From Candidatus Woesebacteria bacterium RIFCSPLOWO2_01_FULL_39_61 (lineage in GTDB: Bacteria > Patescibacteriota > Microgenomatia > UBA8517): 62,182 nucleotides of DNA. Location: contig MGHI01000029.1 in the NCBI GenBank assembly GCA_001793155.1, positions 1 to 62,182 on the forward strand, read 5' to 3'. Both the position numbers and the translations under genes were made by a program. Shown here piece after piece: positions 16,240 through 60,493 of the stretch. The stretch's first letter is position 1; each line of letters starts with the position of its first letter. The notes beneath the pieces were generated by a model, which saw only the letters and a list, made by a program, of their open reading frames with translations, had not been told where the DNA came from and searched no databases.

Positions 16240-17643
16240 TCATAAATTTCTTAATATTTCTCTTGCCCACATATAGCTATAACCAGCACCCATGACAAGA
16301 ACTACATCATTCGCCTCAGCTTCCCTCTTTATCAATTTGGTTATCTCATCTAAATTACCAATAGGTCTGATATCGCTATGGGAAGTAGCCTTAACTATCG
16401 ATGTATTATCAACCCCGAACTTCTTGATATCACGTGCTTTAAAGATAGGACCGACAATAACTTTATCGGCTATATCAAAAACGTCTTTATAACTACCCAG
16501 TAAGGCTTTAGTCCGCGAGTAAGAATGCGGCTCAACTATCGCCCAAATTCTTTTTGTTGGATATCGCTGGCGCAATGCCGAAATAGTTGCCTTGATTGCT
16601 GTCGGATGATGAGCATAATCATCATATATGAGGATTTTCTTTTTCTCTCCGATTAATTCCAATCTTCTTCCAATACCATCAAAGTTTGACAGTACTTCCC
16701 TTGTCGTTTCTAACTTAACGTTAAATAGTTGGGCTAAGATTATTGCGCCTAGACTATTTGACACATTGTAGTCACCCATTATTTTTAACCTAAAACTAGT
16801 GTCCAAATGCAAACTATCTGAGTAGACGACAAAGTCTGTAAATTCGGGTTCCTTTTTTGATATTGTTCCATAAACCATATTTTTGACTTTAAAAGTTGAA
16901 TTCTGTTTAAGAGTATAACCATATACTTTCAATCCTTGAGTCTTTTTTCCAAGTAAAGTAAAAAGATTTTGGATACCTGAAGAGTCTAAATTAATAATTA
17001 AAATTTTATCTCCTTGTAAACTTTCTACAAACTTTCTAAAACTTTCTATGAGTTTCTTTTCATCCTTGAAATAGTCGGGGTGATCGAACTCAATATTATT
17101 GAGAATGATAATTTGAGGTCCATAGCTTAAGAACTTATCATAGAATTCATCGGATTCAATTATAAAAAGATCGCTCTCCCCGATTCTATAGTTTGCACCC
17201 CATTCATGTACTGTCGCCCCAACCAAAACGTTAGGTTCCGTTCCGGCAGCCTCAAAAATAAGTCCGGAGAGCGCTGTCGTTGTCGACTTACCATGGGTAC
17301 CGGCAATGCAAATAACCTTTTTACCCTTCAATAAATATTCTCCTACAAATTCGTCCCACGGCTTTACTATTTTCTTTTCTTTCGCGCCTTTATACTCCAA
17401 GTGTTTACTGTTTTGAAAGACTACCGAAGGGCTAATTACAAGAAGGTCAGTGTCTTTCAGATGATCCGGACTGTGTCCATAATATATTTTAATCCCGGCT
17501 TTTTTCACCTTACCAAGATAGGGAGTCTCTTTTTCTATATCACATCCGTCTACTTCGTAACCCGCCTTCTTGGCCATAACAGCAACACCCGATAAACCGC
17601 TGCCGCCAATCCCCATGAAATGAATTCTTCTTAAATTGTTCAT
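16240..17643 (-). CDS. murC: UDP-MurNAc-L-alanine ligase MurC
   Basis: HFMGIGGSGLSG, IAGTHGKSTTT, ESDE, EFDHPDYF, DDYAHHPT, EPHSYSRT. ATG at 17643 is preferred over the TTG at 17670. Confidence 0.97.
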   Translation of the reverse strand: MNNLRRIHFMGIGGSGLSGVAVMAKKAGYEVDGCDIEKETPYLGKVKKAGIKIYYGHSPDHLKDTDLLVISPSVVFQNSKHLEYKGAKEKKIVKPWDEFVGEYLLKGKKVICIAGTHGKSTTTALSGLIFEAAGTEPNVLVGATVHEWGANYRIGESDLFIIESDEFYDKFLSYGPQIIILNNIEFDHPDYFKDEKKLIESFRKFVESLQGDKILIINLDSSGIQNLFTLLGKKTQGLKVYGYTLKQNSTFKVKNMVYGTISKKEPEFTDFVVYSDSLHLDTSFRLKIMGDYNVSNSLGAIILAQLFNVKLETTREVLSNFDGIGRRLELIGEKKKILIYDDYAHHPTAIKATISALRQRYPTKRIWAIVEPHSYSRTKALLGSYKDVFDIADKVIVGPIFKARDIKKFGVDNTSIVKATSHSDIRPIGNLDEITKLIKREAEANDVVLVMGAGYSYMWAREILRNL

Positions 17644-17699
17644 TCCTGAAATACTATGAAGTGGTTTCAAAACACTTCATATAACAATACCGTCAGGCA

Positions 17700-17770
17700 T
17701 CAAAACGAACCCGAAGGGCGAGTTTTGAAACAAGTTCTATATTTACCTTGAAAGGAGATTCCTTTCAAGG
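17700..17770. repeat. Two REP-like hairpins in the divergent murC/island spacer
   Basis: TCAAAAC..CCCGAAGGG..GTTTTGA (17700-17728) and the perfect hairpin CCTTGAAAGGA-GAT-TCCTTTCAAGG (17746-17770). Confidence 0.8.
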
Positions 17771-17826
17771 CAGCATTTCCACTGCCCATTACAAACTTCA
17801 AACGTAACGTTAAACTAATTATACCC

Positions 17827-17851
17827 TGTTATAATTGTTATGTGATACAAT
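17827..17851 (+). promoter_or_regulatory. Tandem extended -10 elements upstream of the island
   Basis: TG-T-TATAAT (17827-17835) and TG-A-TACAAT (17843-17851), 15-31 nt before the ATG at 17867. Confidence 0.55.
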
Positions 17852-17866
17852 ATGAGCCCCTAATGT

Positions 17867-18964
17867 ATGACTATTACTGAAACGCCATTATACCTTCCTC
17901 AACAAGTCTCCGATGATAGAGAAAGTTTCTGGTCACTTCCCCGTGCAGAATTAGCTCAATCTTTCGAATACTCATTTTCTCAAGAGCTTTTCATTCCCGA
18001 TGAAACCACAGGTCTCAATATAACAATAAAAGCAGAAACAAAGTCCGGTAACATAAACGGTCGCTTGAACGAAGACTCCACTCTAATTACCCCAATAGGT
18101 AATGGCAGAAAACTGGTTGCGGTTTTGGACGGGACCTCCAGCCAAAGGGATATTGCCGGATTGGCAAGGTACGGATTAAGCGGAGCTTGTTACGTTTCGC
18201 ACTTAGTAAGTTATAGCTTTACAAGATCTTCCGAATATCAATCTCTGGTTTTAGAAGGTGATATTAGTGCCGCTGATATTATGCGAACAATGAATGGGTG
18301 GCTTCGTTCAAGACTGAGTCAAATTGAAGGAGTCGACTACCAGGACGTTTTAAGTATTCCTGGTATGGCGGCTACTTTCTGCCTTATTGATGCCCATAAA
18401 AATGAGATATCTGTTGCCCACGTTGCGGATACTCTCGCCTTCGCTTATTTCGACAACGGGGATGTAACAGAGCTAACAGTTAATCAAAATGAAAGATTTG
18501 ATATAGAAACATTAAACTTATTGCTGGATCTTTCTAAAATGCACCAAATTACACCCAGACAAGTTCTAGAAACTCCCGAGCTCAAATCGTTAGTCAAGGA
18601 ACAATTAAGAATATCTTTTACCAAAAAAATAAATACACCTGATGGCTGCGGTATCTTAAACGGAATGGACGAACTCACTTCGAATAATCTTATTTACGAA
18701 ACGAAACTACCGATTACTCCCGATCTAAGGAAATTAATCCTGGCATCTGACGGAGCAGTACTTCCTTATCAATTGAACGGATTATCCAAAGATTCTGTCT
18801 TATGGAATTTGCTAGAAGACACTGAAATCTACACTATCGGAAAACAGCTTAAGTTCCTCCAAAAGGGTGCTGCTGAACTTCTCAGAGATACGGAGTACAA
18901 AAACATCCTAAGATTAAAACCAAGCGATGATGCAACAATAATTGAGGTAGATTTCAGTAGTTAA
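17867..18964 (+). CDS. PP2C/PPM-fold phosphatase-like protein
   Basis: AVLDG, AATF, AHVADT, LASDG and terminal DDAT reproduce the order of PPM metal-binding motifs. Confidence 0.75.
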   Translation: MTITETPLYLPQQVSDDRESFWSLPRAELAQSFEYSFSQELFIPDETTGLNITIKAETKSGNINGRLNEDSTLITPIGNGRKLVAVLDGTSSQRDIAGLARYGLSGACYVSHLVSYSFTRSSEYQSLVLEGDISAADIMRTMNGWLRSRLSQIEGVDYQDVLSIPGMAATFCLIDAHKNEISVAHVADTLAFAYFDNGDVTELTVNQNERFDIETLNLLLDLSKMHQITPRQVLETPELKSLVKEQLRISFTKKINTPDGCGILNGMDELTSNNLIYETKLPITPDLRKLILASDGAVLPYQLNGLSKDSVLWNLLEDTEIYTIGKQLKFLQKGAAELLRDTEYKNILRLKPSDDATIIEVDFSS

Positions 18965-18989
18965 CGTTTTCATTAATTACTCCATTAAA

Positions 18990-20147
18990 ATGGCTCGTGT
19001 AATAATCTCTGAGTATAAAGCAAAAGGCCTCCTCTCTTCCTATTTCGGCTATAAATACGAAGGGTTTAAAATCTTAAAAGAAGGAAGTCTACAGAAACAA
19101 ATTAAAACTCTTCAACCTGATAAAAGATACGTTATTAAGGTGGATGAAGGAATCAAAAAACGTGAGAAGAGTGGTTTCCTTTTTAAAGACATTCAAAGGC
19201 AACAACTTAAAACTTATGCGCGTAAATTATTTGATAAAAAATTTAATCGGTTATTAATAGAAGAGTACATACCCCATTCAAAAAAGGATGAAAAATTCAT
19301 CGCATTAGAAAGGGTAAGAGAGGGAATCGCAATTTATTACTCAAATAAAGGTGGAGTTGATATCGAAAACCAGAAAAATACCGTTAAAAAGGAAATCTAT
19401 TCCAATAAAACTATCACAAAAATCAGTAATTTTTTAAAAGTTAATGTGAAAATTTTAGAAGAGTTGATATCAGGATTTGATAAGTATTGTATATCATTTT
19501 TAGAGAGCAATCCTTTTATCATAAAAGGGGAAAGAATTATATTTTTAGATCTGGCGATTGAAGTTGACGATACTGCCGAATTTTTTGTTAATGGAATTTG
19601 GAGTAAAGCTGACTTAGTCACTACTCACTCGGCTTTGACTCCGGAGGAATTATCCGCTAATTTACTTGCCGAAAAAAGTCCGGCATCTTTCAAGTTAAAT
19701 CTATTGAATCCACAAGGAAATATATTTACTCTCTTTTCAGGCGGTGGAGCAAGTATAGTTTTAGCTGATGAAATTTATAACAAAGGAAAAGCTAAGGATA
19801 TCGTAGACTACGCAGAGTATAGTGGAAATCCCAACGACGAGGAGACTTACCTTTTCACTAAAATAATAATTTCGCTAGCGAAAAAGTCCCCGGCTAAAAA
19901 TAAATTGATTTATATTGCGGGTGGGGTCGCTAATTTTACGGATATCAGAATAACGTTCAGGGGGATAATTAGAGCCTTGGACGAAGAAAGCGTTTTCTTA
20001 AAAAAACATAAGGTGAAAATATATGTAAGGAGGGGAGGCCCTTATCAGGAAGAGGGACTGGAAATGATGAGAGATTTTCTTGATAAGCAAGGGTTGCTCG
20101 GAGAAGTGTACGGTCCGGAAAAAGTTTTGACAGAAATAATCAAATGA
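18990..20147 (+). CDS. aclB: ATP-citrate lyase beta subunit (ATP-grasp plus citrate-binding)
   Basis: ISEYKAK, GGVDIE, FLESNPF, SGGGAS, YAEYSGNP, IAGGVANFT, VRRGGP. Confidence 0.9.
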   Translation: MARVIISEYKAKGLLSSYFGYKYEGFKILKEGSLQKQIKTLQPDKRYVIKVDEGIKKREKSGFLFKDIQRQQLKTYARKLFDKKFNRLLIEEYIPHSKKDEKFIALERVREGIAIYYSNKGGVDIENQKNTVKKEIYSNKTITKISNFLKVNVKILEELISGFDKYCISFLESNPFIIKGERIIFLDLAIEVDDTAEFFVNGIWSKADLVTTHSALTPEELSANLLAEKSPASFKLNLLNPQGNIFTLFSGGGASIVLADEIYNKGKAKDIVDYAEYSGNPNDEETYLFTKIIISLAKKSPAKNKLIYIAGGVANFTDIRITFRGIIRALDEESVFLKKHKVKIYVRRGGPYQEEGLEMMRDFLDKQGLLGEVYGPEKVLTEIIK

Positions 20148-21943
20148 TAATCGACATCGAAAAACTAAGGAATAGCGAACCTAACATTATAGTTTTAGGT
20201 TCATATCCTCCAATTATACAGTCCATATTGGATTTTGATTTTATTGTAGGAAGGACAAGACCAAGTATTCACGGAGTTATCGGATTAAATAAAAAAAGTG
20301 AAAGATATTTTTGGGGAGATAAAGAATTACTTTTACCGGTGTATCGTAATCTGGAAGTAACTCCTAATAATCTTAACAATAAAATCAATCTTTTCTTAAG
20401 TGTGGTTTCCGCAAGAAGAGTACTCTTTACGACCGATATTACATTAAAATCCCTAACGAATTTACTTGGAGGGGTTATTTTTGCAGAAAACACCCCAGAA
20501 ACCCATTCACTAAAACTATATAAAGAAATTCAGTCAATAAACCGCTTTATTATCGGCCCCTCCAGCGTCGGACTTCTGATACCTGGAATACTTAAACTCG
20601 GTGCGATAGGTGGTGTTGAGATAAAACAGCTATTTAATCCCATTCTTTACCAGCCAGGTAATATTGCAGTGCTATCCGCGTCCGGAGGTATGACAAATGA
20701 ATTGTTAAATGTTGTATCCTCTCTTGGAAAAAGAATTTCATTTTGTATGTCTTTCGGCGGTGACAGATTTCCGATAACCACACCCATGGAGGCAATTGTA
20801 AGTGCCGAAAAGGATACAAAAACTTCACATATAATTTATTTCGGTGAACTGGGTGGAGTTGATGAATTTAAGATAGCAGAATTAATATCGCAAAATAAAA
20901 TTACAAAGCCAGTTTATACCTATATTGCCGGTTCCGTTTCCGAAGCTTTTTCTACTCCACCTCAGTTCGGTCATGCAAAGGCAATTGCAAGAAACTTCAA
21001 CGAGAGCGCAAAAGCTAAAATGAAATCTTTGAAAGAAGCCGGAGCCGTAGTCGGTTCTTCTTTTACAGAATTGGTTTCGTTAATTGAAAAAATACCTTCG
21101 TCTTCAAAAGAAAATTTTGCAATTGATAAAGAATGGAAAAAACTTATTAACCGTCAGAGGGCATTATTTGTTTCGACAATTTCGCATGAAACCGATTATG
21201 GCGTCAGAATTTTTGATGACGATCTTTTGGACCTTGCCAAGAAACATTCATTCTCCTATATAACCGCATCGCTTCTATTAGGCAAAAAGATAACCTCTAA
21301 GGAATTAGAAGAATTTGTTGATTTGGTTATGAAACTCCTGGTTGATAACGGACCTTCGGTATCCGGCGCAGTCAATACAATCATATCTGCTCGTGCAGGA
21401 AAAGATATGGTATCCTCACTCGCATCCGGTCTTCTGACCATCGGCAACCGTTTCGGAGGAGCTGTTAATAAAGCTGCGGAAAATTGGATTTATGGTGTTG
21501 AATCTGGTATTAATCCAGGTGATTTTGTTGAAGAACACTCCTCAAACGCTAAACCCATAGAGGGAATTGGGCATAAGAAATATAGGGTGGAAAATCCGGA
21601 CCCAAGAGTTAAAGAACTACGCAGGTGGGCGTCAAAACTAAAAAATAGAAAGTTTTTGGCGTTTGCGAAAAAAGTTGAATCGATAACGACGGATAAAAAA
21701 TCAAATTTAATATTAAATGTGGATGGTGCAATGGCCGCCATACTTTTGGATATTCTGTTTGAAAAAGAAGGATTATCAATAAAAGAACTAAAAAGGTTAA
21801 CTGAAGTAGAGTTTTTCAATGCCTTTTTTATAATTCCCAGGTCTGTAGGATTTATTTCACACTATTTGGACCAAAAACGAATGGATGAAGGTCTTTTCCG
21901 ACTTCCCAAAGAAGAAGTTGCACATGTATCAAGAACCCAGTAA
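20144..21943 (+). CDS. aclA: ATP-citrate lyase alpha subunit (CoA-binding, phospho-His and citryl-CoA lyase domains)
   Basis: IIGPSSVG, SASGGMTNEL, FGGDRFP, GELGG, QFGHAKA (phospho-His), TIGNRFGGA, GIGHK, NVDG; ATGA-coupled to aclB. Confidence 0.92.
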   Translation: MIIDIEKLRNSEPNIIVLGSYPPIIQSILDFDFIVGRTRPSIHGVIGLNKKSERYFWGDKELLLPVYRNLEVTPNNLNNKINLFLSVVSARRVLFTTDITLKSLTNLLGGVIFAENTPETHSLKLYKEIQSINRFIIGPSSVGLLIPGILKLGAIGGVEIKQLFNPILYQPGNIAVLSASGGMTNELLNVVSSLGKRISFCMSFGGDRFPITTPMEAIVSAEKDTKTSHIIYFGELGGVDEFKIAELISQNKITKPVYTYIAGSVSEAFSTPPQFGHAKAIARNFNESAKAKMKSLKEAGAVVGSSFTELVSLIEKIPSSSKENFAIDKEWKKLINRQRALFVSTISHETDYGVRIFDDDLLDLAKKHSFSYITASLLLGKKITSKELEEFVDLVMKLLVDNGPSVSGAVNTIISARAGKDMVSSLASGLLTIGNRFGGAVNKAAENWIYGVESGINPGDFVEEHSSNAKPIEGIGHKKYRVENPDPRVKELRRWASKLKNRKFLAFAKKVESITTDKKSNLILNVDGAMAAILLDILFEKEGLSIKELKRLTEVEFFNAFFIIPRSVGFISHYLDQKRMDEGLFRLPKEEVAHVSRTQ

Positions 21944-21965
21944 CAGATTTTAACTATTAAGACCC

Positions 21966-22670
21966 ATGAAGACACTGATAGTCAACGCCTACGATTTTGG
22001 ATATACCAGCGGGGTTAACGATGGAATAATTAAGGCTCACTCCGAAGGTATAGTCACCAGCACATCTTTAATGGTTTATGGAAAAGCCGCAAAAACGGCA
22101 AGTAAACTTTCAAAATTTCCAAAGCTATCTGTCGGACTGCATTTTCAAATCACCAGCAAAAAACTGGAGTCGGATATTTGCAACGGAAGATCTTTAAGTT
22201 TACAAACCACAGAAAAAATAAACAAAGAATTCATTAAACAGTTAAAAGATTTTAAAAAAATAACCGGAAAGAATCCTACTCATTTAGATTCACACCACCA
22301 TATTCACATGTCCCCAAACGTAAAATCAATTTTTGAAAAATACTCTAAAAAGTATGGTATTCCTGTTCGGGGTTTTTATGGTGTAAAAATGATCAAGGAT
22401 TTTTTTGGCTGGAATAGCTTAAGGATCAGGGATCTAAACCGCATTAGTGTAAATAACTTATTAAATATTTTGTCACGATTAGAAGATGGGGTAGGCGAAT
22501 TAATGTGTCATCCCGGATTGCTTGACAAAAAACTGATGGGTATCAGTAGGTACTCACTGGAGAGAGAAGACGAACTTAAAACTTTAACCGATGTAAAAAT
22601 ATCAAACTTTATCCGTAAATCAGGAATAAAATTGGCCAATTGGACCGAGGCCTATAAAGACATGCTATAA
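21966..22670 (+). CDS. ChbG/YdjC-family carbohydrate deacetylase
   Basis: LIVNAYDFG (canonical NADDFG), TSTSLMV, GLHF, THLDSHHHIH, ELMCHPG. Confidence 0.88.
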   Translation: MKTLIVNAYDFGYTSGVNDGIIKAHSEGIVTSTSLMVYGKAAKTASKLSKFPKLSVGLHFQITSKKLESDICNGRSLSLQTTEKINKEFIKQLKDFKKITGKNPTHLDSHHHIHMSPNVKSIFEKYSKKYGIPVRGFYGVKMIKDFFGWNSLRIRDLNRISVNNLLNILSRLEDGVGELMCHPGLLDKKLMGISRYSLEREDELKTLTDVKISNFIRKSGIKLANWTEAYKDML

Positions 22671-22698
22671 TCACATTGAAAAAATATTCGTCAAGAAC

Positions 22699-23697
22699 AT
22701 GTACAATCAAAAGATTGTTACTTTCGGAGGAGGAACAGGTCACTTCAATTTATTAAACGGCCTGAAAAGATTTAATAACCCGACATTGATTACCGCCGTT
22801 GTTGCATCTTGGGATAGCGGAGGAAGTTCAGGTAGGCTACGAACTGAGTTGGGAATCTTACCCCCCGGTGACATTAGAAGGTGTATTTTGGCATTGATGG
22901 AGGATGACGAACAGCAAAAAGTAGCTCAAAGACTCTTTGATGATCGATTAGAAAAAAGTGACGGTTTTTTTAAGGGACATTCATTGGGAAACCTTATCGG
23001 AGCACGCCTTGATCACATATTCCACGGGCAGGATAGAGGAACTGATGCGGAAAGAACACTTTTCCGTATAAGCGCTAAAATTTTACCTGCGACGCTAACC
23101 AACCTGCAACTTGTAGGGATAACTAAAGAGGGTATTAATATCGAGGGTGAAACCAATTTAGACTATCGTAGTCGCCGTTCAGATTTCGATCCCAAAGACC
23201 CAATAGTAAGAATTCATTTTCATACCCGGGCAGACCCGAATCCGAGGGTATTAAAGGCAATCAAAGATGCCGACAAAATTGTGTTTGCTCCCGGAGATTT
23301 ATTTACCAGTATTTTACCGCATCTTTTGATCGACGGAGTCAAGGAAGCAATTTCCTCTTCCAAAGCCAAGCTGTGTTTTGTACTTAACTTAACTACAAAA
23401 CCGGGAGAAACGGATGCATTCAATGCCTCTGACTACCTGGAAAAATTGGTATTTTATTTGGGCGATAGAAATAGATTAGATTATATAATTGTAAATACTA
23501 AAGTTCTGAGAGGTGAAATTGTTAATATTTATAAATCCGTAGGACAGGAATTGATTAAAGTGGACGAAAAAAGGTGTAAAAGTTTAGCTCCGAAGGCAAA
23601 AATAGCAAAAGCAAAACTTGGAGATTATTCGAGAAAAGAACATCTTCTAAGACATAATTCTGAAAAACTTGCAAAAACAATTTTAAGATTACCCTAG
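22699..23697 (+). CDS. yvcK: YvcK/GlmR (UPF0052, CofD-like) family protein
   Basis: FGGGTG, DSGGSSGRLR, PPGDIRR, GHSLGN, PGDLFTSILP, LRHNSEKLA. Confidence 0.9.
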   Translation: MYNQKIVTFGGGTGHFNLLNGLKRFNNPTLITAVVASWDSGGSSGRLRTELGILPPGDIRRCILALMEDDEQQKVAQRLFDDRLEKSDGFFKGHSLGNLIGARLDHIFHGQDRGTDAERTLFRISAKILPATLTNLQLVGITKEGINIEGETNLDYRSRRSDFDPKDPIVRIHFHTRADPNPRVLKAIKDADKIVFAPGDLFTSILPHLLIDGVKEAISSSKAKLCFVLNLTTKPGETDAFNASDYLEKLVFYLGDRNRLDYIIVNTKVLRGEIVNIYKSVGQELIKVDEKRCKSLAPKAKIAKAKLGDYSRKEHLLRHNSEKLAKTILRLP

Positions 23698-23734
23698 CCT
23701 ACTGTTTCGGAGCAGTGAAAAAAAGAAAAATCAT

Positions 23735-24898
23735 GTGATAAACAAGATAAGAAAATCTATACTTCTTGATTACTGTAGAAAAAATAACCTTTCAATTACC
23801 CCCGGTATAAAACTTTGTCGACCGAATACCAAGTTAACGGTGGTCATACCAGCTTATAATGAAGAGAAATTTATCGACGAGACGTTATTAAGCCTCGGAA
23901 ACATTCCTGAATTAATTGAAATAGTAGTTGTCAATAATGGGAGCAGTGATAAAACGAAGGATGTTGTCAACAAAATCTCTCAACACATTAAGTGGCCGAT
24001 ATACTTACTAGAATGTTTACAAAAAGGACCTGTTTACGCGCGTAAAAGGGGGATGGATGAAGTTGTAATTCAATACTTAGTCCAAAATCCAGAGGCAACC
24101 AAACTGAGATATATTGCCTTAACCGATGCGGACACTATAGTCAATAAAAATTGGGTTAAAGTAATTATCGACACGTTTCGAAAAACGAATGCGTCAGCCG
24201 TCGGAGGAATACACGGATACCCTAACTGGATCGATGAGGAAATAGAAAAAGTTACGGGGATAAAGAATTTCTTTGAAGATCTTGTTAATATTGCCTACTA
24301 TTTAAGCGAAAACGGGTTAGCTTTAGTACAAACTAATGGAGCAAACTTTGCTATCGAAGTAGTCGCTTACTCGGAGGTTGGTGGAAGTCGGCAACCGACT
24401 GACGAAAGGGGCAATCCTGTCAAGGGTAGCGATAGACTATTCGGGTACTCATTAAGAGATCGTGGAAAATTGGTGTCTTTTATTCCAACAATAACCATAA
24501 CAAGCCCAAGAAGAACCCTTTTTTCTCTGTCTCAAGGAAAAGATCCGGCTTACTTCAGAGATATAAAAAGATGGGTTGACGTGAGAGATAATGAAATTTC
24601 TCTAATACATAAAGCCGCCAGGAAACTTAGACTAAAAGATTGGATGGAAAACAAAAGACTTAGGGAGATATCATTTGTCGAACACAACATCATTCAACCC
24701 GCAATTAAAGGACAGCTTAGTTTACTTCCCTTAAGAAAACTCATGGGTTCAAATCATCCCCTAATTGACAAAATAGTCCGTGTAATAAATGATACTCATT
24801 CAGCCACCAGCACCGAAGCTGATAGTTATACGAGTAAAATTGCAGGTAGTTATACCCAAGAGCTTTTAGATACTGTCAGAACTAAAATATTATCTTAA
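23735..24898 (+). CDS. GT2 glycosyltransferase with C-terminal extension
   Basis: VVIPAYNEE, NNGSSD, TDAD (DxD), GANFA, GSD, TSPRR. Confidence 0.88.
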   Translation: MINKIRKSILLDYCRKNNLSITPGIKLCRPNTKLTVVIPAYNEEKFIDETLLSLGNIPELIEIVVVNNGSSDKTKDVVNKISQHIKWPIYLLECLQKGPVYARKRGMDEVVIQYLVQNPEATKLRYIALTDADTIVNKNWVKVIIDTFRKTNASAVGGIHGYPNWIDEEIEKVTGIKNFFEDLVNIAYYLSENGLALVQTNGANFAIEVVAYSEVGGSRQPTDERGNPVKGSDRLFGYSLRDRGKLVSFIPTITITSPRRTLFSLSQGKDPAYFRDIKRWVDVRDNEISLIHKAARKLRLKDWMENKRLREISFVEHNIIQPAIKGQLSLLPLRKLMGSNHPLIDKIVRVINDTHSATSTEADSYTSKIAGSYTQELLDTVRTKILS

Positions 24899-24912
24899 AT
24901 GTAATTTGTGGC

Positions 24913-25698
24913 ATGTTTACTTTCAAAAATTTAACTTATTCTTTAACCTGCCTTTTTCCGCAACCAAAAAATGTGGCAGTTGTCGTTACTTACCACACAA
25001 TTTCCGATTCTGGCGTATATAATGCCGTTTCACCAAAGATGTTTAAGGAGCAAATGAAACTACTACGTAAGAATAAATTCAATCCTGTACTTTTAAGTGA
25101 GCTTACAAGGATGATTAATGACGGCGGACTAAAGCCTAAAACTGTCTGTGTAACCTTTGATGATGGTTTTATGGATAATTATACAAATGCTTTTCCAATC
25201 CTGAAGCAGTATAAAATCCCCGCCACCATTTTCGTTGAAACTTGTCACATCGGTCTTGAATCAGAAAATCAAGGAGAAATGTTTCCTATGCTGGGAAAGG
25301 GGGAGTTAATAAAACTTCAAGATTCTAATCTGGTTTCAATAGAACCGCACACCGTTCATCATCCAAGGCTCACTAAAATTTCCGAAAATAATATGTATCA
25401 TGAAGTTCGACAATCAAAAGATTACCTCGAGCGGTTGCTAAATAAAAAGTGTGAGCACTTCGCATATCCTTACGGACTGCATAACAAAACTGTCCATCAG
25501 GCTGTTTCTAGAACTGGAATCAGATACGCTTATACAACAGAGGAAGGGTTTGTGCGGCTTGGCGATGATACTATAGAGCTAAATAGAAACAGTATGAACC
25601 GAACCATCTCTCTTAGGCAATTTGAAAGTATATGTCTTTTTGGGAAATTTTCGCAGAAAAGATTATTTCGCGCAATAGGCTTTACCCCTTTGTCTTAA
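24913..25698 (+). CDS. NodB/CE4 polysaccharide deacetylase
   Basis: YH, TFDDG, HTVHHPRL, FAYPYG motifs intact. Confidence 0.93.
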   Translation: MFTFKNLTYSLTCLFPQPKNVAVVVTYHTISDSGVYNAVSPKMFKEQMKLLRKNKFNPVLLSELTRMINDGGLKPKTVCVTFDDGFMDNYTNAFPILKQYKIPATIFVETCHIGLESENQGEMFPMLGKGELIKLQDSNLVSIEPHTVHHPRLTKISENNMYHEVRQSKDYLERLLNKKCEHFAYPYGLHNKTVHQAVSRTGIRYAYTTEEGFVRLGDDTIELNRNSMNRTISLRQFESICLFGKFSQKRLFRAIGFTPLS

Positions 25699-25782
25699 CC
25701 TCCCTTTGCGCAATATCAACTAAAATCGTTATAATATGGGAAAAAATAATTTCGGATTAATCCTTTAAGATATCATTTAAGT

Positions 25783-26736
25783 ATGACCCGAGAGCAATTA
25801 ACACCTTTTTTAACTCTAGATCAAAAAAATGTAGTTGGTTATTACTTGAAAATCGGTTGCGAAGATTTCTATTTAAGACAACCCCAAAAAGAATTCGAAG
25901 GATATAAACTTTTAAGACCATACTTCAGAATGCCCAAAGCACGCCTTGCACAAACGTCGGTAGGTCCTATTCTGGTTGTGCAAGCAATTAAAGATGCTTC
26001 CGCCGCAAGCAAGCTTCTTGAGACTGATCCTCAGGCGGCTAATCGGACTCTGGTTGAATTCATGTCCGATATGGAAAAGATGTGGTTGGATACCAGAAGA
26101 CCTATGGATGAAGAGCAAGTTGCAAGAAATTGGAGATTAGAGTCGTTAAAGACATTAGTACGATTGGCGTCTGATCCTACTATTGAATCTATCGGAGATA
26201 AGGCAGTTATCGTCAATGGAGAGAAATACCCGCCGGTCGGACAGACTTTAGAAGAGTGCCTTAACAATTTAAGCCGAAAAAAAGACCCAATAATGGTTTT
26301 GTGCCATGGAGATGAACACTTGGAAAACTTGTTAACGGCACATGATGGCTATTATGTAATCGATCCTGGCAATTATACCGGTCTGAACTCCCCTTCCTCA
26401 ACCGTCAACAATGTAGTAGGCGCAAATTATTTGTTTCTTTATCAATACAACGGTACAGCTTGTAGCGAGAATGGAAATTTTAGAGTGGATTATAGGGTGA
26501 AAGAACCCTATGAGAATGCAGAGAAACTAATGAAACCAACGCTTAGAAGGCTTGACGTGTTGGCAAGAGATATATTATGTGGAGATTCGCTTGATAAAGA
26601 ACTACTTTTTGCTAATGAAATACGCGTAGCTGTCGGTTGGGTCCATAGATCCATGGATCTTACCGAAATAAGAAAAACCGGAATGGTATATGCTGGTATC
26701 GCAACAGAGCATTATTATTCGGATGGAATAATTTAA
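25783..26736 (+). CDS. APH/choline-kinase-like phosphotransferase
   Basis: Brenner-type LCHGDEHLENLL followed by VIDPG. Confidence 0.7.
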   Translation: MTREQLTPFLTLDQKNVVGYYLKIGCEDFYLRQPQKEFEGYKLLRPYFRMPKARLAQTSVGPILVVQAIKDASAASKLLETDPQAANRTLVEFMSDMEKMWLDTRRPMDEEQVARNWRLESLKTLVRLASDPTIESIGDKAVIVNGEKYPPVGQTLEECLNNLSRKKDPIMVLCHGDEHLENLLTAHDGYYVIDPGNYTGLNSPSSTVNNVVGANYLFLYQYNGTACSENGNFRVDYRVKEPYENAEKLMKPTLRRLDVLARDILCGDSLDKELLFANEIRVAVGWVHRSMDLTEIRKTGMVYAGIATEHYYSDGII

Positions 26737-26763
26737 GATATCAACTTATATTTATTAGAGATC

Positions 26764-27999
26764 ATGACTAGAATTTTCTTTCCTTCTCAAGCAGTCATAC
26801 TTGCTGCCGGTATAAATTCAAGATTCGTTCCCTTCAACTCAAGAAACTATCATAAGAGTAACTTTCTTTTAATGGGTGAACCGATTATTCGGCAAACGGT
26901 TGGGGTTCTAAAAAAAGCGGGGATCAAAGAAGTGGTTGTTATTACATCTCCAAAAGATAAGATGACGAAAAAATCCCTTGAAAATTTAGGCGGTAAAGGG
27001 ATTGGGTTAGATTTTTATACTCAAAAACAACCACTAGGAATGGCATCTGCCTTATTGGGAGTTAAACGTTACCTACATGACAAATTTTTGGTTATCAATC
27101 CCCAACAGATTAACATTGATACTCACCTTTCTCGATTGAAAAATATTAAGACTCTTTCAAAAAATACTGTTTGTCTTTTTTCTCAATCTACGGACCAACC
27201 CCAAAAGTATGGCATTTTGGGGCTAAAGGGTAAGAGAGTTACAAAAGTTGTTGAAAAACCAGCTAATCTGTCCGGACTTTCAAACCAAAGAATACTCGGG
27301 GTCTACATTCTTAACTCAGATTTCATGGACTTAATGGGAAATTTTAATATAACAGAATACCTGTTGGAGGAAGCGCTAAATAAATATGCTTCCCAAGGCG
27401 AAGTTATCGCCATTAGAAGTGATCATCCCGCCCTATCTTTAAAATACGCTTGGGATCTTTTTTCTATAGCAAATTATAAATTCTCCCAATTCCCACAAAC
27501 TCCGAAAGTTCACAAAAAGGCCTGGGTTCATCCAACAGCCATAATTTCAGGACCAGTGGTTATAGAAAATGGCGCAAAAATTTACGAATACACTCTTATC
27601 CAAGGCCCTTGTTATATAGGTAAAAACTGCCTAGTAGGTAGTTTCTGTAAAATTAGGAAAGAAACGGTCCTCGAAGAAGACACAGAGTTACAAAACAGTG
27701 TTGAGATCAAACATTCTATCATTGGTGCGAAAACACATATTCACTCTGGATTTATAGGCGACTCAATAATTGGTGAAAACTGCCGAATAGGTGCCGGATT
27801 TATTACGGCCAACAGGAGACTTGATCGAGACAATATTCGAGTTTTGATAAAAGATAGACTGGTGGACGTGGGCACGTCCTTCGGAAGCGTAATCGGAGAT
27901 AATGTTAAAATTGGTATCCATTGTGGTACAAACCCAGGTACAGTCATTGCCAGTAACTCGTTAGTTTTACCCATGACTCTTATTTCTCATCAGAAGTGA
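26764..27999 (+). CDS. Bifunctional sugar-1-phosphate nucleotidyltransferase / left-handed beta-helix acetyltransferase (archaeal-type GlmU-like)
   Basis: VILAAGINSRF, QPLGMA, YGIL, VEKP, followed by hexapeptide repeats, GFITANRRLD and NPGT. Confidence 0.88.
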   Translation: MTRIFFPSQAVILAAGINSRFVPFNSRNYHKSNFLLMGEPIIRQTVGVLKKAGIKEVVVITSPKDKMTKKSLENLGGKGIGLDFYTQKQPLGMASALLGVKRYLHDKFLVINPQQINIDTHLSRLKNIKTLSKNTVCLFSQSTDQPQKYGILGLKGKRVTKVVEKPANLSGLSNQRILGVYILNSDFMDLMGNFNITEYLLEEALNKYASQGEVIAIRSDHPALSLKYAWDLFSIANYKFSQFPQTPKVHKKAWVHPTAIISGPVVIENGAKIYEYTLIQGPCYIGKNCLVGSFCKIRKETVLEEDTELQNSVEIKHSIIGAKTHIHSGFIGDSIIGENCRIGAGFITANRRLDRDNIRVLIKDRLVDVGTSFGSVIGDNVKIGIHCGTNPGTVIASNSLVLPMTLISHQK

Positions 28000-28782
28000 C
28001 ATCAGAAATTTAACTAATGCACCTTCATCTGAAAAGCCTATAACTTTCTTTGCGACCATTTTTAGCCTTACTGGAGAATTACCCATGACTACTCCATATC
28101 CTACATTTGATATCAGCTCGTAATCATTTTCATTATCTCCGACTGCCATTATATCTTTTAGACCTAAGCCTAATTGTCTGCACCAAATCCTAGCCGCCGT
28201 TAACTTATTCACTCCTTTAGCACAAATATCAAAATACTCCCCCCCCGAACTATTTTTTAGTAACCAGTTACTTATACTCTTAATTGATTTTATATACTTT
28301 TTAATATCAGGGTTAATTTGCACAACTGAAAGAAGTGTAATTTCGTAGGAAGTAGCATAACTTACGGGAAAGACGTCAATTTTCCAAGGATGATTTCTAA
28401 CATTATCATAAATAGAATCACTACAATACAAATTAGATCCGGTTCCAAAGATTACCGCTCCGCCAAGCTGCTCAACCTTTTGAATTAGTTCTTTGACTAA
28501 CTTCTCATCTATAACGTTCTGCCAAATAATTTGCCCCGATGATGTAACTATTTGTCCTCCACCCGAAGTTATATGTAAAGAATCTTTCGGAAAATGGGGC
28601 AAAATATAATTTTTAATAAAGGCATAATGTCTTGAGGTGGAAACCCCACAGGAAATCCCTGTTTTAGAAAGATTTTTAATTACCTGAATTATCTTAGGAG
28701 AAAACTCTCTTTTGGAGTTCGTTAGTGTTCCATCTACGTCAAGTAAAATGCCTTTGGGAACGAATTTAGTTGCTTCAGCCAT
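27967..28782 (-). CDS. Cof-type HAD-IIB phosphatase
   Basis: LDVDGT motif I, STSR, GVNK, GDNEND, VMGNS; overlaps the GlmU-like gene convergently by 33 nt. Confidence 0.92.
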   Translation of the reverse strand: MAEATKFVPKGILLDVDGTLTNSKREFSPKIIQVIKNLSKTGISCGVSTSRHYAFIKNYILPHFPKDSLHITSGGGQIVTSSGQIIWQNVIDEKLVKELIQKVEQLGGAVIFGTGSNLYCSDSIYDNVRNHPWKIDVFPVSYATSYEITLLSVVQINPDIKKYIKSIKSISNWLLKNSSGGEYFDICAKGVNKLTAARIWCRQLGLGLKDIMAVGDNENDYELISNVGYGVVMGNSPVRLKMVAKKVIGFSDEGALVKFLMSLLMRNKSHG

Positions 28783-28854
28783 ATTGTTTAGTGAAATATA
28801 AATAAAGTTTGCGATTTAGCACCTATACATTTCATGCTATCGGGCGGTTCTTTT

Positions 28855-30156
28855 TTAATTTTGAGATTTCTTCTCAAGGGCGAATCTAACTACTTCATGC
28901 TCTGACCAAGGTGTTTCTTGGATTCCGTCTAAATTCATCGATTTTTCATGCCCTTTGCCGAATAAAGCTACCGTATCTCCGGGTTCTGCTATCCTTATAG
29001 CTTCTTTGATTGCTTTTTTACGATTAACAATTTCAATAACATCTTTAAAGTTTTTCGAAATGCCGCTTCTAATTTGATAAATAATATCAGATGGATCCTC
29101 GCTTCTCGGATCTTCGGAAGTCAGAATAATTGTATCCGAATATCTCGCGGCAATCTCCCCCATTTTCGACCTTTTTTGTGCATCTCTTTCTCCCGCGCTT
29201 CCGAAAACTGAAATTAACTTCCCTTTTTTTATACTTTTTAAGTAAATAAGAACAGCTTCAAGCGAGTCGGGTGTATGGGCAAAGTCGATATAGATTTTAA
29301 TACCCTTATTATTCTCCACTTCTTCAAGCCTGCCTTCTGGTAGTTTAAATGAATTAAGAGTCGAGATAACTTTCTGTCTATCTATACCCAACACCTGAAC
29401 AACTCGAGTTGCGGCCTCCGCATTCAGATTATTAAACTTTCCGGGAAGAACATTTATTTTTGTAGTTTTAGGACATATTACCTTCACCTCAGCTGAGTTT
29501 ATAAATGACATTTTAATCTTTTTGTATTCGGTGAAAGTTTTGTGGTAGTCGAGGTGTTCCGGCGCTATATTGGTTAAAACCCCAACTTCAAACTTAACTC
29601 CTGCAATTCTATCTTGATCGATACCATGGGAACTAACTTCAATTACCGCGTATTTAAAGTTATTATCGACCATATCTTTAAGTAATTTCTGAAGTTCAAT
29701 AGAACCCGGGGTAGTAACGTGCAATCCAGGATAAGTAATTGATGATATTAATCCCGTCCTTTTTCCAAGTGAAGTTAAAATGTGGTATATAAGATGAACT
29801 GTGGTAGTTTTTCCCTTTGTACCAGTTACGCCAACAACTTTTAATTTTGACGAGGGGTTATCAAACCATTGCGACGCCAATAAACCCAAAGCTTTTCGGG
29901 AATTACCAACCTTGACGTAGGTAGTTTTTTTCAGCCAATCTTTTTTAGGGCTTTCTTCTCCAACAACCACCTGTGCGCCTTTTTCTAAAACCTCAGGGAT
30001 AAGCTTATGGGCATTTACATTTAATCCTTTGACTGCCACGAATATGCATCCTTTTTTTACATTTCTTGAGTCGTCGGTAATTTGAGTGATATTCCTATCT
30101 TTAGGTTCGAAGAGCTTATATTCTGGAAGAGCTTCAAGAAGACTAGATAATTTCAT
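28855..30156 (-). CDS. murE: MurE ligase (compact, EDPR specificity motif)
   Basis: DDSR, GVTGTKGKTTT, EVSSHG, TNIAPEHLDYH, DFAHTPDSL, FGSAGERD, EDPR, GKGHE; start placed at MKLSSLL (30156). Confidence 0.96.
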   Translation of the reverse strand: MKLSSLLEALPEYKLFEPKDRNITQITDDSRNVKKGCIFVAVKGLNVNAHKLIPEVLEKGAQVVVGEESPKKDWLKKTTYVKVGNSRKALGLLASQWFDNPSSKLKVVGVTGTKGKTTTVHLIYHILTSLGKRTGLISSITYPGLHVTTPGSIELQKLLKDMVDNNFKYAVIEVSSHGIDQDRIAGVKFEVGVLTNIAPEHLDYHKTFTEYKKIKMSFINSAEVKVICPKTTKINVLPGKFNNLNAEAATRVVQVLGIDRQKVISTLNSFKLPEGRLEEVENNKGIKIYIDFAHTPDSLEAVLIYLKSIKKGKLISVFGSAGERDAQKRSKMGEIAARYSDTIILTSEDPRSEDPSDIIYQIRSGISKNFKDVIEIVNRKKAIKEAIRIAEPGDTVALFGKGHEKSMNLDGIQETPWSEHEVVRFALEKKSQN

Positions 30157-30186
30157 AAAAGATAGCCAAGTTTGACATGTCAAGAT

Positions 30187-31476
30187 CTAGGGAACCTCCC
30201 GTATCTTGGCTCCGAGTTTCTTTAGATTTTCGCTAAAATTCGGGTGGCCGCGGGAAAGCGTGTCGGCATTTAAAATGAGTGATTCCCCTTCGGCTATCAT
30301 TGCGGACATAACGAGTGCAACAGTCGCCCGGATAATATAGGGGGCTTCCATTGACGCTCCTTTTAATTTCCTACCCGCAAATACTATCACTCTGTGGGGA
30401 TCACTCATAATAATCTCTGCCCCCAATTTTGTAAGCTCGCTCGTCCAGAAGAGTCCGGTTTCGTACATCCAGTTGTGAAATAACATGTAACCATCAGGAG
30501 CTGCCAAAGCCAGAGGAATAAAAATAGGAAGAAGATCGACGGGCAGTGCCGGCCAAGGCTGGGCACGTACAACATTAGTCTTTTTTTCAAACGATCCAGT
30601 GAGAGTAATTTTTTGATTTTTTCTTAAAACAGCAACATCGTTTTCGTAATCTACTTTTATATTAAATTTAGAAAATTCGTAATTAATGGGTGGAAACATA
30701 TCAGGCAGTGCGTTATGAACCCTCATTTCTCCCCCGGTTAATGCGCCTAAAGCCAGAAAGGTTGTAATCTCATAATGATCGCTCAACAAAGTATGTGTTA
30801 CCGGCCGAAGACTTTTTACTCCCTCGATCTCAAGAATGTTAGATCCAACTCCTTTAATTTTCGCTCCGGCACTATTTAAGAAATTACAAACGTCCTGTAC
30901 TTGAGGTTCGGCAGCTGTACCAATAATTCTCGTTTTCCCTTTTAAAAATACAGAGATCATAATCATATTCGTTGTTACGGTTGGACTCATTTCGGTTAAC
31001 CAAATTTCTTTTGCCTCAGCTTCTGCCAAATCCATCACCACTCCTTTTTCTGTCTCCGTAATCGAAATACCCAGATCTCTGAATGCCTTATATGCTGGTT
31101 CAAAAGGTCTGATTCCAAGGGTACAACCTCCGGGAAGATCCCTAAAGTCTACCTTACCAAAGCGAGATAGTAACGCTCCCCATAAAAGAGATGTTCCTTT
31201 CATATTTCCCAAATCTTCTTCCGTCAGATTCTTAAAGGATACTTTTGAATTATCTACGACCATTCGGCTCTCCTGTAAATTCCACTCAACATTGCTGCCT
31301 AACTTTTTAAGTATCTGAGTCAAACGTACAACATCAGTGATATTGGGAACGTTTTCTAAAACCACCTCTCCGTCAAAAAGAAGAGTTGCGGGTATTATAT
31401 GAACTGCAGAATTTTTACTGCCCGAAGGATAAACTTCACCGGATAAGACTTGGCCACCCTTTACCTTGACATTCAT
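30187..31476 (-). CDS. murA: UDP-GlcNAc 1-carboxyvinyltransferase MurA
   Basis: SGSKNS, NVPNITDV, LPGGCTLGIRP (catalytic Cys loop), AAEPQV, IRA, RGH; start placed at MNVKVKGG (31476). Confidence 0.96.
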   Translation of the reverse strand: MNVKVKGGQVLSGEVYPSGSKNSAVHIIPATLLFDGEVVLENVPNITDVVRLTQILKKLGSNVEWNLQESRMVVDNSKVSFKNLTEEDLGNMKGTSLLWGALLSRFGKVDFRDLPGGCTLGIRPFEPAYKAFRDLGISITETEKGVVMDLAEAEAKEIWLTEMSPTVTTNMIMISVFLKGKTRIIGTAAEPQVQDVCNFLNSAGAKIKGVGSNILEIEGVKSLRPVTHTLLSDHYEITTFLALGALTGGEMRVHNALPDMFPPINYEFSKFNIKVDYENDVAVLRKNQKITLTGSFEKKTNVVRAQPWPALPVDLLPIFIPLALAAPDGYMLFHNWMYETGLFWTSELTKLGAEIIMSDPHRVIVFAGRKLKGASMEAPYIIRATVALVMSAMIAEGESLILNADTLSRGHPNFSENLKKLGAKIREVP

Positions 31477-31495
31477 AAAGTTGAACTCAATTATA

Positions 31496-59750: not shown

Positions 59751-60493
59751 CGCAGCTCTCTTTCCCAAACTTTTATCCAGGTTGTCATTCTGTAAATGGC
59801 CATTAGATAGGAAAGAACGAATCCTCGCCAACCATCAAGATATCCTTTCTTGTAAAAAAACCGTCTTAAAAAAGAAAATAATGGCGCAAAAAAAAGCATG
59901 AAATAAGAAAATTTCCTATTCTGAGAAACCATCTCATCCGCAATCCTGTCAGTGTAATCATTTATCATGTTCCAAAAATCGGATACTGTTTCATATTGGT
60001 AATGAATCTTTGCTCCTTTTAATTCGCTTGTCCAACCGTCGACAAAAACTTCTTCATGAACTTTTCCTATCCACTTCCCCTTATCTTTTCTCCATAGCCA
60101 AATATGCTTATCGGGGCTGAAGCGGGTATGTTTTATCTCGGCGCCAAAAATAATGTTCTTTCTGGGAATAAGATAGCCGTTAATGTCTTTTACTTTCACG
60201 ACGATTTTCACTTCCTCGGCCAGTTCCTCGGTTGCGACCTCATCTGCGTCTATTGAAAAAATCCACTCATTTTTTGACTTGCTTACTGCAAAATTCTTTT
60301 GTGTCGAATAGTCATCGAACTTTCTGAAAAAAACTTTGGCGCCAAGCCTTTTGGCTATATCGCAAGTCTTATCACTACTTCCGCTGTCAACAATCACAAT
60401 TTCGTCGGCAAACTTTTTTACCGAAGCTATGCATTTTTCTATATTTTTTTCTTCGTTAAGTGTAATTATTGTTACTGAAATTTTTTGCATCAA
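59744..60493 (-). CDS. GT2 glycosyltransferase (WaaE/KdtX-like)
   Basis: ITLNEE, VDSGSSDKT, QKNFA, IDADE, VHE, LDGWRG. Confidence 0.92.
   Translation of the reverse strand: MMQKISVTIITLNEEKNIEKCIASVKKFADEIVIVDSGSSDKTCDIAKRLGAKVFFRKFDDYSTQKNFAVSKSKNEWIFSIDADEVATEELAEEVKIVVKVKDINGYLIPRKNIIFGAEIKHTRFSPDKHIWLWRKDKGKWIGKVHEEVFVDGWTSELKGAKIHYQYETVSDFWNMINDYTDRIADEMVSQNRKFSYFMLFFAPLFSFLRRFFYKKGYLDGWRGFVLSYLMAIYRMTTWIKVWERELRW

Follow-up and report, generated by a model that had tools for sequence, protein, structure and literature searches.

Two-subunit ATP-citrate lyase (ACL) using external citrate is described as rare in the Candidate Phyla Radiation (CPR) by the study that proposed it for a Gracilibacterium (PMC6851277). 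Misannotation of citryl-CoA synthetase and citryl-CoA lyase (CCS/CCL) in this group has been noted in a preprint (10.1101/2022.10.25.513756). In the literature that we found, which is of incomplete coverage, ACL of Patescibacteria, CPR bacteria or Saccharibacteria receives passing mentions, none of them on a linkage with hexosamine genes or with the division and cell wall (dcw) cluster. In Bacillus and Listeria, GlmR (YvcK) is a protein that binds UDP-N-acetylglucosamine (UDP-GlcNAc) and activates GlmS; it also shows uridyltransferase activity, and both phosphorylation and acetylation regulate it (PMC6171935, PMC7525490, PMC10128056, PMC13046274). A GT2 glycosyltransferase and a YdjC deacetylase, HpnI and HpnK, make glucosaminyl-bacteriohopanetetrol (PMC12583986), and another YdjC protein, NaxD, de-N-acetylates undecaprenyl-phosphate-GalNAc (PMC11279074). 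Here we analyse a 62,182-nucleotide contig of Candidatus Woesebacteria bacterium RIFCSPLOWO2_01_FULL_39_61 (MGHI01000029.1; "the window"), in which genes for ACL, a YvcK/GlmR protein and a GT2-YdjC pair lie together between murE and murC, at positions 17,867 to 28,782. New here are the embedding of ACL in a dcw cluster, the MurE fusions found in relatives, an active-site substitution (DNG) fixed in a whole clade of the enzyme, and the attached module of YdjC, GT2, CE4 and kinase genes.

The explanation that we consider fairly probable, taken as a whole, is that the nine plus-strand genes of this stretch form one operon, predicted to be read from the 196-bp spacer beside murC, and that this operon joins two modules: one whose ACL makes acetyl-CoA from scavenged citrate, so that amino sugars can be N-acetylated and peptidoglycan supplied with UDP-GlcNAc, and a triad of YdjC, GT2 and kinase genes. 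In the supply module (PP2C, AclB/AclA, YvcK/GlmR and a GlmU-like protein, with a neighbouring HAD phosphatase), ACL would convert imported citrate, ATP and CoA into oxaloacetate and acetyl-CoA. The GlmU-like enzyme, the proposed consumer of acetyl-CoA, would use it on the spot, its beta-helix acetyltransferase half N-acetylating glucosamine phosphate and its nucleotidyltransferase half yielding UDP-GlcNAc for MurA, MurB and MurC-F, whose genes flank the stretch on either side. YvcK/GlmR would sense UDP-GlcNAc and tune the pathway, and PP2C may set the phosphorylation state of YvcK. Scavenged citrate thereby probably supplies the acetyl groups of the wall. The triad, together with the CE4 deacetylase, would take UDP-GlcNAc to glycosylate an acceptor and then remove the N-acetyl group, giving a glucosaminyl product. 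The scheme builds on the genes present, the identity of their domains, the conservation of catalytic residues and a synteny that is conserved or re-invented; it is from gene order, fusions and residue conservation that we infer functional coupling. The first-pass annotation of this DNA had already proposed a link from citrate through acetyl-CoA to UDP-GlcNAc, and the conserved and repeatedly re-invented gene neighbourhoods back it strongly. Its picture of a single self-contained pathway has to be given up, since the window has neither glmS nor glmM and the stretch consists of two modules, of which the triad also lives without ACL.

The closest comparison locus, L023 (loci from other genomes are given by such labels throughout), has the order murD-murB-murC / PP2C-aclB-aclA-YdjC-YvcK-GT2-CE4-GlmU / MurE::HAD-murA-ftsI-ftsL-mraW-mraZ, in which the kinase alone is missing; identities to the window are 90% for AclA, 92% for MurA, 90% for FtsI, 70% for PP2C, 63% for CE4 and 50% for GT2. 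Related modules occupy the same murC/murE site in L019, L020 and L021, whose AclA proteins are 63-66% identical to that of the window: glmS-nagB-x-PP2C-aclB-aclA-<yvcK-GlmU-like-IMPase in L019, glmS-aclB-aclA-GNAT-<yvcK-<MurE::GlmU (uridylyltransferase half only) in L020, and aclA-<yvcK-<162 aa-<Arch_glmU-<murE in L021. The relatives rank in the same order by identity of the proteins of the stretch as by identity of their dcw proteins, and these concordant ranks, with the shared site in L023 and L019-L021, indicate vertical inheritance of the module at the murC/murE site. The nearest named relatives of AclA are from Levybacteria, Roizmanbacteria, Saccharimonadales and "Patescibacteria group" metagenome-assembled genomes (MAGs), and those of the GT2 and the kinase are from Gottesmanbacteria, which by itself places the organism in the CPR, probably within the Microgenomates type.

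The stretch had earlier been taken for an inverted island that interrupts the dcw cluster. Accretion by chance, or recent acquisition of foreign DNA as an island, has in its favour that the genes switch strand amid neighbours on the minus strand; we give such an origin next to no chance, as it is already contradicted by the data: the murC/murE position is ancestral to the clade, the proteins of the stretch rank relatives as the dcw proteins do, and its GC content is 0.375 as against 0.374 and 0.369 in the flanks, with GC at third codon positions (GC3) likewise alike, so that the comparison proposed in the first-pass annotation gives no compositional sign of foreign DNA. Horizontal acquisition of an island was rejected on these grounds, the site being occupied in L019-L021 and L023. 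Nor is the stretch an assembly chimera, since at least 20 metagenome runs from groundwater, soil and sediment contain it at full length and identically assembled. The same annotation had allowed that its genes might never co-occur elsewhere and might have discordant phylogenies. Instead, the combination of aclAB, YdjC, YvcK, GT2, CE4 and GlmU recurs in L023, the identity ranks are concordant, and outside the dcw cluster YdjC, YvcK, GT2 and CE4 are found together in L022, where aclAB is replaced by CCS/CCL.

In a survey of about 20 informative aclBA loci of the CPR, aclBA usually stands beside a gene for a GNAT or GlmU-type acetyltransferase, often with glmS, yvcK or murB. A GNAT gene directly adjoins the citrate-cleaving genes in L001, L003, L004, L005, L007, L010, L012, L013, L017, L020 and L022, and glmS does so in L004, L008, L014, L018, L019, L020 and L022. 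The yvcK gene adjoins aclBA in L004 and throughout the dcw-embedded clade, and murB follows aclA in L027 and L029. L008 and L014 share the order yvcK-PP2C-GlmU-like-IMPase-aclB-aclA-<HAD-glmS. In these two MAG or metagenome contigs, frameshifts, which may be assembly errors, break aclB, aclA and the HAD gene (L008, 5323-6485 and 8301-9103; L014, 3680-5523).

Some of the neighbours are fused to one another. MurE is joined to a HAD-IIB domain in a protein of 695 aa (L023:13208-15295) and to the uridylyltransferase half of GlmU in one of 687 aa (L020:13299-15362), which ties the HAD and GlmU-like functions to the synthesis of peptidoglycan precursors. L020 presents a natural split of the GlmU activities: its GlmU consists of the MurE-fused uridylyltransferase half only, and a GNAT gene overlaps the aclA stop codon. 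This L020-type GNAT has no solved relative that we could find by sequence. Two further fusions were observed, a MurC::MurB protein of 732 aa in L020 (4529-6727) and a GNAT::secretory-lipase (LIP) protein of about 630 aa whose gene immediately precedes aclB in L003 (6883-8784) and L010 (373-2265).

The strongest single argument that citrate cleavage itself is selected comes from L022, in which a non-orthologous set of enzymes with the same chemistry occupies the same neighbourhood. This locus lies outside the dcw cluster, between a tRNA synthetase gene and Sua5-SHMT-FolD, and reads on a single strand glmS-ccsA-ccsB-ccl-GNAT-HAD-YdjC-YvcK(78%)-GT2(56%)-CE4(62%), the percentages being identities to the window. 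Unfused large and small subunits of citryl-CoA synthetase and a citryl-CoA lyase (L022:4038-6864) here replace aclBA. They are closest to the Hydrogenobacter proteins 6hxq_B (E 1e-40) and 6hxp_A (E 2e-53) and 27-32% identical to the ACL of the window. The best solved relatives of the L022 GNAT include the human, plant and nematode glucosamine-6-phosphate N-acetyltransferases, with E values of about 1e-7 (8e-8).

Both ACL subunits of the window have the domain layout of the enzyme. The best solved relative of AclB is ACLY-A of Methanothrix concilii (6hxi_A, E 5e-57, residues 5-384 aligned), and its ATP-grasp and citrate-binding domains are both present. Residues 14-595 of AclA align with residues 498-1094 of human ACLY (E 4e-105), covering the CoA-ligase domain and the C-terminal citryl-CoA lyase module. 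The phospho-histidine loop reads QFGHAKA, as compared with QFGHAGA in the human enzyme, its QFGHA part is kept in 120/120 AclA relatives, and the equivalents of human E599, H975 and D1026 are retained.

The GlmU-like protein has the layout of an NTP_transferase domain followed by a left-handed beta-helix acetyltransferase. Its residues H327 and N350, the equivalents of H308 and N331 in Sulfolobus tokodaii ST0452, are invariant in five CPR homologues, and the L021 orthologue (41% identity) scores 298 bits on TIGR03992, above the cut-off. In 5/5 CPR GlmU-like proteins, LA[AG]Gx[SN]SR replaces the canonical GxGxR loop. YvcK has the CofD fold and passes its family cut-off (Table 1); orthologues of 60-81% identity are encoded beside the citrate-cleaving genes, or a few genes away from them, in L004, L008, L019, L020, L021, L022 and L023. 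PP2C, for which no match to solved structures was obtained by sequence, has orthologues upstream of aclB in L023 (70%) and in L019 and L008/L014 (43-47%). Its gene heads the operon in all of these as in the window, a position that would fit phospho-control of YvcK, and PP2C possibly acts on phospho-YvcK/GlmR, by analogy with the phosphoregulation of GlmR in Bacillus (PMC13046274).

The second module can be recognized by its recurrence without ACL. L024 has YdjC-GT2-kinase, L025 (a Gottesmanbacterium) NTP_transferase-YdjC-GT2-kinase and L026 APH<-GT2-kinase-YdjC, and as none of these loci has ACL, the triad, which is rare, is a module separate from citrate cleavage. The GT2-YdjC pair is present in the window and in L022-L026, and in the loci seen (the window, L024, L025 and L026) the kinase always stands beside GT2 and YdjC. 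The best solved relative of YdjC is the chitooligosaccharide deacetylase 7vi8 (E 1e-24), with scores of 175.8 bits on the ChbG model (cut-off 227) and 119 bits on the HpnK model. The CE4 protein, in which the motifs TFDDG and HTVHH can be read and which is without a membrane segment, is closest to the IcaB (100 bits) and PgaB (90 bits) models, both far under their cut-offs; its orthologues directly follow GT2 in L022 (62%) and L023 (63%). For the GT2, of which about 14 full-length homologues were found, the AlphaFold2 model (mean predicted local distance difference test, pLDDT, 91) has a GT-A core and an all-helical C-terminal domain. The DxD motif (D131, D133) is invariant, QxxRW is not among the invariant columns, and the sequence has no transmembrane-like segment. 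The donor is probably a UDP-HexNAc. A processive synthase of the poly-N-acetylglucosamine (PNAG) or Nod type (PgaC/IcaA/NodC) was considered and rejected, since the GT2 lacks both transmembrane helices and QxxRW, which makes such a polymer synthase unlikely, and scores 40 bits on the PgaC model as against a cut-off of 422.

The kinase had to be placed by its fold, profile comparison with the sequences of solved structures being marginal only (E 0.03 or worse). Invariant LCHGDEHxxN and IDPGN motifs correspond to the catalytic loop HGDxxxxN and to a metal-binding Asp further downstream, and the AlphaFold2 model (pLDDT 89) matches methylthioribose kinase, actinobacterial glucosamine kinase (6hwk/6hwl), APH(3') and LicA with a Foldseek probability of 1.00. 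On this model the 317-aa protein is predicted to be a small-molecule kinase of the APH/ELK fold, and probably a sugar kinase. The family is very small, with 10 proteins found by word search in 5.8 billion and 27 cluster representatives (E<=1e-30) found by profile search in 1.84 billion.

A kinase of this kind beside a GlmU-like enzyme brings to mind the salvage of amino sugars. The AmgK/MurU/MupP bypass relies on a kinase of the APH fold together with an NTP-transferase and a HAD phosphatase, and it could be that the deacetylases, kinase, GlmU-like protein and HAD recycle host-derived amino sugars, bypassing GlmS and GlmM. YdjC and CE4 would then de-N-acetylate chito-oligosaccharides or muropeptide sugars, the kinase would phosphorylate glucosamine (GlcN) or HexNAc, possibly at C1 as do NahK, AmgK and methylthioribose kinase, and the GlmU-like enzyme would re-acetylate the product with acetyl-CoA from ACL and uridylylate it. 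The kinase gene is separated by 27 nt from the GlmU-like gene that follows it, the triad of L025 directly follows NTP_transferase, and nagB adjoins glmS in L019. The best structural matches of the kinase are an anomeric kinase (methylthioribose kinase) and glucosamine kinase, YdjC is closest to a chitooligosaccharide deacetylase, and neither glmS nor glmM was found in the window. Salvage would, however, leave no role for the GT2, which invariably accompanies YdjC and the kinase; L023 keeps YdjC, GT2, CE4 and GlmU but has no kinase in the cluster; and the operon has neither a glycoside hydrolase nor a sugar transporter. We give salvage a small but real chance.

The lack of membrane segments in both GT2 and CE4 also suits a cytoplasmic route, in which GT2, HAD-IIB, deacetylase(s) and kinase build a soluble glucosaminyl molecule, such as a precursor like that of mycothiol or bacillithiol or a compatible solute: the kinase would phosphorylate an acceptor, GT2 add GlcNAc, the HAD remove the phosphate, and YdjC or CE4 free the amine. 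Cof-type HAD-IIB phosphatases partner glycosyltransferases in two-step syntheses, the HAD of the window has weak matches to the MPGP and SPP models, and L022 runs GNAT-HAD-YdjC-YvcK-GT2-CE4, with a GNAT that weakly matches the MshD model. Yet a ligase of the MshC or BshC type is not present, and the triads of L024-L026 have no adjoining phosphatase or GNAT. The HAD, moreover, belongs to the murE operon and is kept in the L008, L014 and L018 contigs, which show no GT2/YdjC module. A soluble product of this kind is unlikely.

We favour instead that the triad probably makes a de-N-acetylated GlcN conjugate, which, to judge from the described GT2-YdjC pairs, all of them acting on HexNAc linked to an isoprenoid lipid, is possibly lipid-linked. 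Two genes for PMT_2 transferases (GT-C, ArnT-like; Table 1), a type that uses lipid-phosphate-sugar donors, sit in the downstream glycan locus of the window with a Wzy_C ligase-like gene, several GT4 genes and a further GT2, and their products are possible users of such a donor. In L030 (5932-8182), the gene for a protein distantly related to the GT2 (27% identity) directly follows a polyprenyl synthetase gene; after it come genes of the methyltransferase, NUDIX and kinase types, and elsewhere the contig bears a reverse-gyrase-like gene. The polyprenyl synthetase neighbour and the PMT_2 genes are hints, not proof, of an isoprenoid-lipid acceptor. A bolder picture, to which we would give a rather low probability, makes host-derived citrate the acetyl currency of the whole envelope: an ACLY-like lyase with a His-to-Asn change would be hard-wired to UDP-GlcNAc synthesis and share a transcript with an undescribed GT2/YdjC/CE4/kinase pathway for a lipid-linked or phosphorylated glucosaminyl donor, from which the nearby GT-C transferases would decorate the surface with cationic GlcN.

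Several observations weigh against the explanation of two modules, one of them fed by citrate. The first concerns the lyase itself: at the position of His900 of human ACLY, AclA has Asn (DNG for DHG, in LLVDNGPSVSG). We take human H900 to be the counterpart of His274 of citrate synthase, which in its neutral form donates a hydrogen bond to the thioester carbonyl, so that the change may slow or alter the cleavage of citryl-CoA. DNG is found in 18/18 AclA relatives of at least 61% identity in which the motif was found, and these are exactly the dcw-embedded clade; more distant CPR AclA proteins in which the motif was found carry DHG. Being shared by the whole clade, DNG is a fixed character and not a sign of decay. 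It could mark an AclA that no longer completes the lyase step and has another role, for example in forming or binding citryl-CoA or in regulation. This is very unlikely, in our estimate: the remaining catalytic positions listed above are kept, AclA is strongly conserved (90% identity to L023), the neighbourhood is the same as that of DHG-type ACL and of CCS/CCL, and Asn could keep a hydrogen bond to the thioester carbonyl much as the neutral His274 does.

The GlmU-like protein falls under the cut-off of TIGR03992 (Table 1) and has a G-I-N-S-R nucleotide loop as opposed to GxGxR. In ST0452 the acetyltransferase residues are presumably H308, Y311, N331, K337 and K340, and three of these five differ in the window, with Phe for Y311, Asp for K337 and Arg for K340. 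A membrane anchor is missing from the GT2, and its Foldseek matches are generic GT2 proteins only (such as HAS, TarS/TarP and PcManGT), with template modelling scores of about 0.4-0.5 and no pointer to an acceptor. No citrate transporter, glmS or glmM was found in the window; beyond it, there may be other sources of acetyl-CoA (pyruvate:ferredoxin oxidoreductase, pyruvate dehydrogenase, acetyl-CoA synthetase) and other sinks. Sampled words of the stretch were absent from three tiny SOLiD metatranscriptome runs.

Finally, the aclBA loci L002, L006, L011, L015 and L028 have no amino-sugar neighbour. Such loci suit the idea that ACL serves general carbon and energy metabolism, its acetyl-CoA being turned into acetate and ATP and its oxaloacetate into aspartate or pyruvate, and that its position among wall genes is meaningless. 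ACL acting on external citrate has been proposed as the entry to central carbon metabolism in Gracilibacterium (PMC6851277), an AMP-binding gene (acyl- or acetyl-CoA synthetase-like) lies upstream in L002, and a class I/II aminotransferase encoded upstream of aclB in L005 and L029 might convert ACL-derived oxaloacetate to aspartate. Against this stand the recurrence of the linkage with acetyltransferase, glmS, yvcK or murB in many arrangements and orientations, its persistence where CCS/CCL replaces ACL, and the protein fusions that join neighbouring genes to MurE; we consider it quite unlikely that the position carries no meaning.

The setting of the locus is a minus-strand dcw cluster that is complete in the window by Pfam: mraZ, mraW, ftsL, ftsI, murA, murE ... 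murC, murB, MurL-like, murD, hydrolase, murF, DegT, FemAB, mraY, ftsW, murG, ftsA, ftsZ. Between murE and murC lie nine plus-strand open reading frames with intergenic gaps of -4 to 84 nt, the smallest being the 4-nt overlap of the aclB stop and the aclA start. The earlier gene list, with its convergent HAD, is right as to the domains and where they lie, but the plus-strand genes number nine, not eight, and the HAD gene belongs with murE: it is on the minus strand, 72 nt downstream of murE, and is thus the last gene of the murA-murE operon, not of the plus-strand run. Its 3' end overlaps that of the GlmU-like gene by 33 nt, and in L008, L014 and L018 it is convergent with aclA. The divergent layout of murC and the acl genes is also found in L009, L019 and L023. 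A promoter and terminator scan of positions 17500-29000 gave counts not above those in shuffled sequence and is uninformative. Between murB and murD, the window has a gene for a 451-aa protein with no match in the Pfam copy used; its L019 orthologue (54% identity) bears MurL_N and MurL_epimerase_C.

Table 1. Features of the murE-murC interval, its flanks and other genes of the window referred to in the text
Feature	Coordinates	Strand	Basis or remark
451-aa protein gene	13614-14969	-	no match in Pfam copy used
murC	16240-17670	-	left flank; Mur_ligase, Mur_ligase_M, Mur_ligase_C domains
Spacer, 196 bp	17671-17866		separates divergent murC and plus-strand run
PP2C-type phosphatase	17867-18964	+	divergent, first gene of run; PF13672 (PP2C_2), E 3.9e-10
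aclB, ATP-citrate lyase beta subunit	18990-20147	+	ATP-grasp + Citrate_bind; PF16114 E 7e-53, PF24948
aclA, ATP-citrate lyase alpha subunit	20144-21943	+	Ligase_CoA PF00549 + Citrate_synt PF00285
YdjC-family carbohydrate de-N-acetylase	21966-22670	+	PF04794, E 3e-43
YvcK/GlmR, CofD family	22699-23697	+	TIGR01826, 243.5 bits (cut-off 196)
GT2, soluble, GT-A	23735-24898	+	PF00535
CE4 poly-/oligosaccharide de-N-acetylase	24913-25698	+	PF01522, E 4e-28
Predicted APH/ELK-fold kinase, 317 aa	25783-26736	+	no Pfam/NCBIfam match; motifs and predicted fold
GlmU-like, archaeal type	26764-27999	+	NTP_transferase + hexapeptide; TIGR03992, 271 bits (cut-off 292.1)
Cof-type HAD-IIB sugar-phosphate phosphatase	27967-28782	-	PF08282, E 9e-44; TIGR00099, 135.4 bits (cut-off 137)
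murE	28855-30183	-	right flank, Pfam
murE + murA	28855-31542	-	then ftsI, ftsL, mraW, mraZ; same order in L019-L021, L023
PMT_2 transferase	50452-51906	-	GT-C, ArnT-like
PMT_2 transferase	58272-59831	-	GT-C, ArnT-like

CPR bacteria (Patescibacteria) are abundant episymbionts with minimal metabolism, whose source of acetyl-CoA and host-derived supplies are largely unknown. The repeated wiring of citrate cleavage to genes of amino-sugar N-acetylation and peptidoglycan synthesis, which holds even when the type of citrate-cleaving enzyme is swapped, suggests a testable dependency, citrate in and wall acetyl groups out, that could guide the design of cultivation media for CPR bacteria. The triad, with its orphan kinase family, may define a new route of envelope modification or of amino-sugar salvage.

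Compared with described systems, the citrate-fed supply that we propose is a bacterial parallel to the eukaryotic link between ACLY and the hexosamine pathway (GFAT, GNA1, AGM1, UAP1), in which citrate cleavage, there in the cytosol, likewise supplies acetyl-CoA for amino-sugar N-acetylation. A route resembling that of GNA1 appears in CPR relatives, with a GNAT beside ACL and a uridylyltransferase-only GlmU (L020). Unlike the eukaryotic route, the window uses a beta-helix acetyltransferase of the GlmU/ST0452 type and would feed peptidoglycan, a coupling that we read solely from the order of the genes. The match between the GlmU-like protein and ST0452 (2ggo, 5z09; E 1e-39) extends over the full length. 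AclB/AclA have the two-subunit domain layout of the ACL of M. concilii (Methanosaeta; 6hxi/6znw) and of human ACLY (6hxh, 6poe), but lie in a dcw/UDP-GlcNAc cluster without the context of the reductive tricarboxylic acid cycle or of lipogenesis, and AclA differs from human ACLY in its GHAKA loop and its Asn for His900. The CCS/CCL of Hydrogenobacter thermophilus (6hxq, 6hxp) is the type found in L022, whereas the window has the fused ACL type instead.

The regulatory side resembles the control of GlmS by GlmR in B. subtilis and Listeria in having a YvcK orthologue, glmS linkage in relatives and a PP2C gene in the same operon; it differs in that yvcK has neither yvcJ nor whiA as a neighbour and is linked to ACL, with glmS outside the window. 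As for the triad, its likeness to HpnI/HpnK (hopanoid GlcN) and FlmF2/NaxD (undecaprenyl-phosphate-GalN for lipid A) lies in the conserved GT2-YdjC pair, the match of YdjC to the HpnK model and the presence of PMT_2 GT-C transferases in the window. Its GT2, in contrast to those systems, lacks membrane helices, and the pair is accompanied by a second deacetylase (CE4) and by an orphan kinase.

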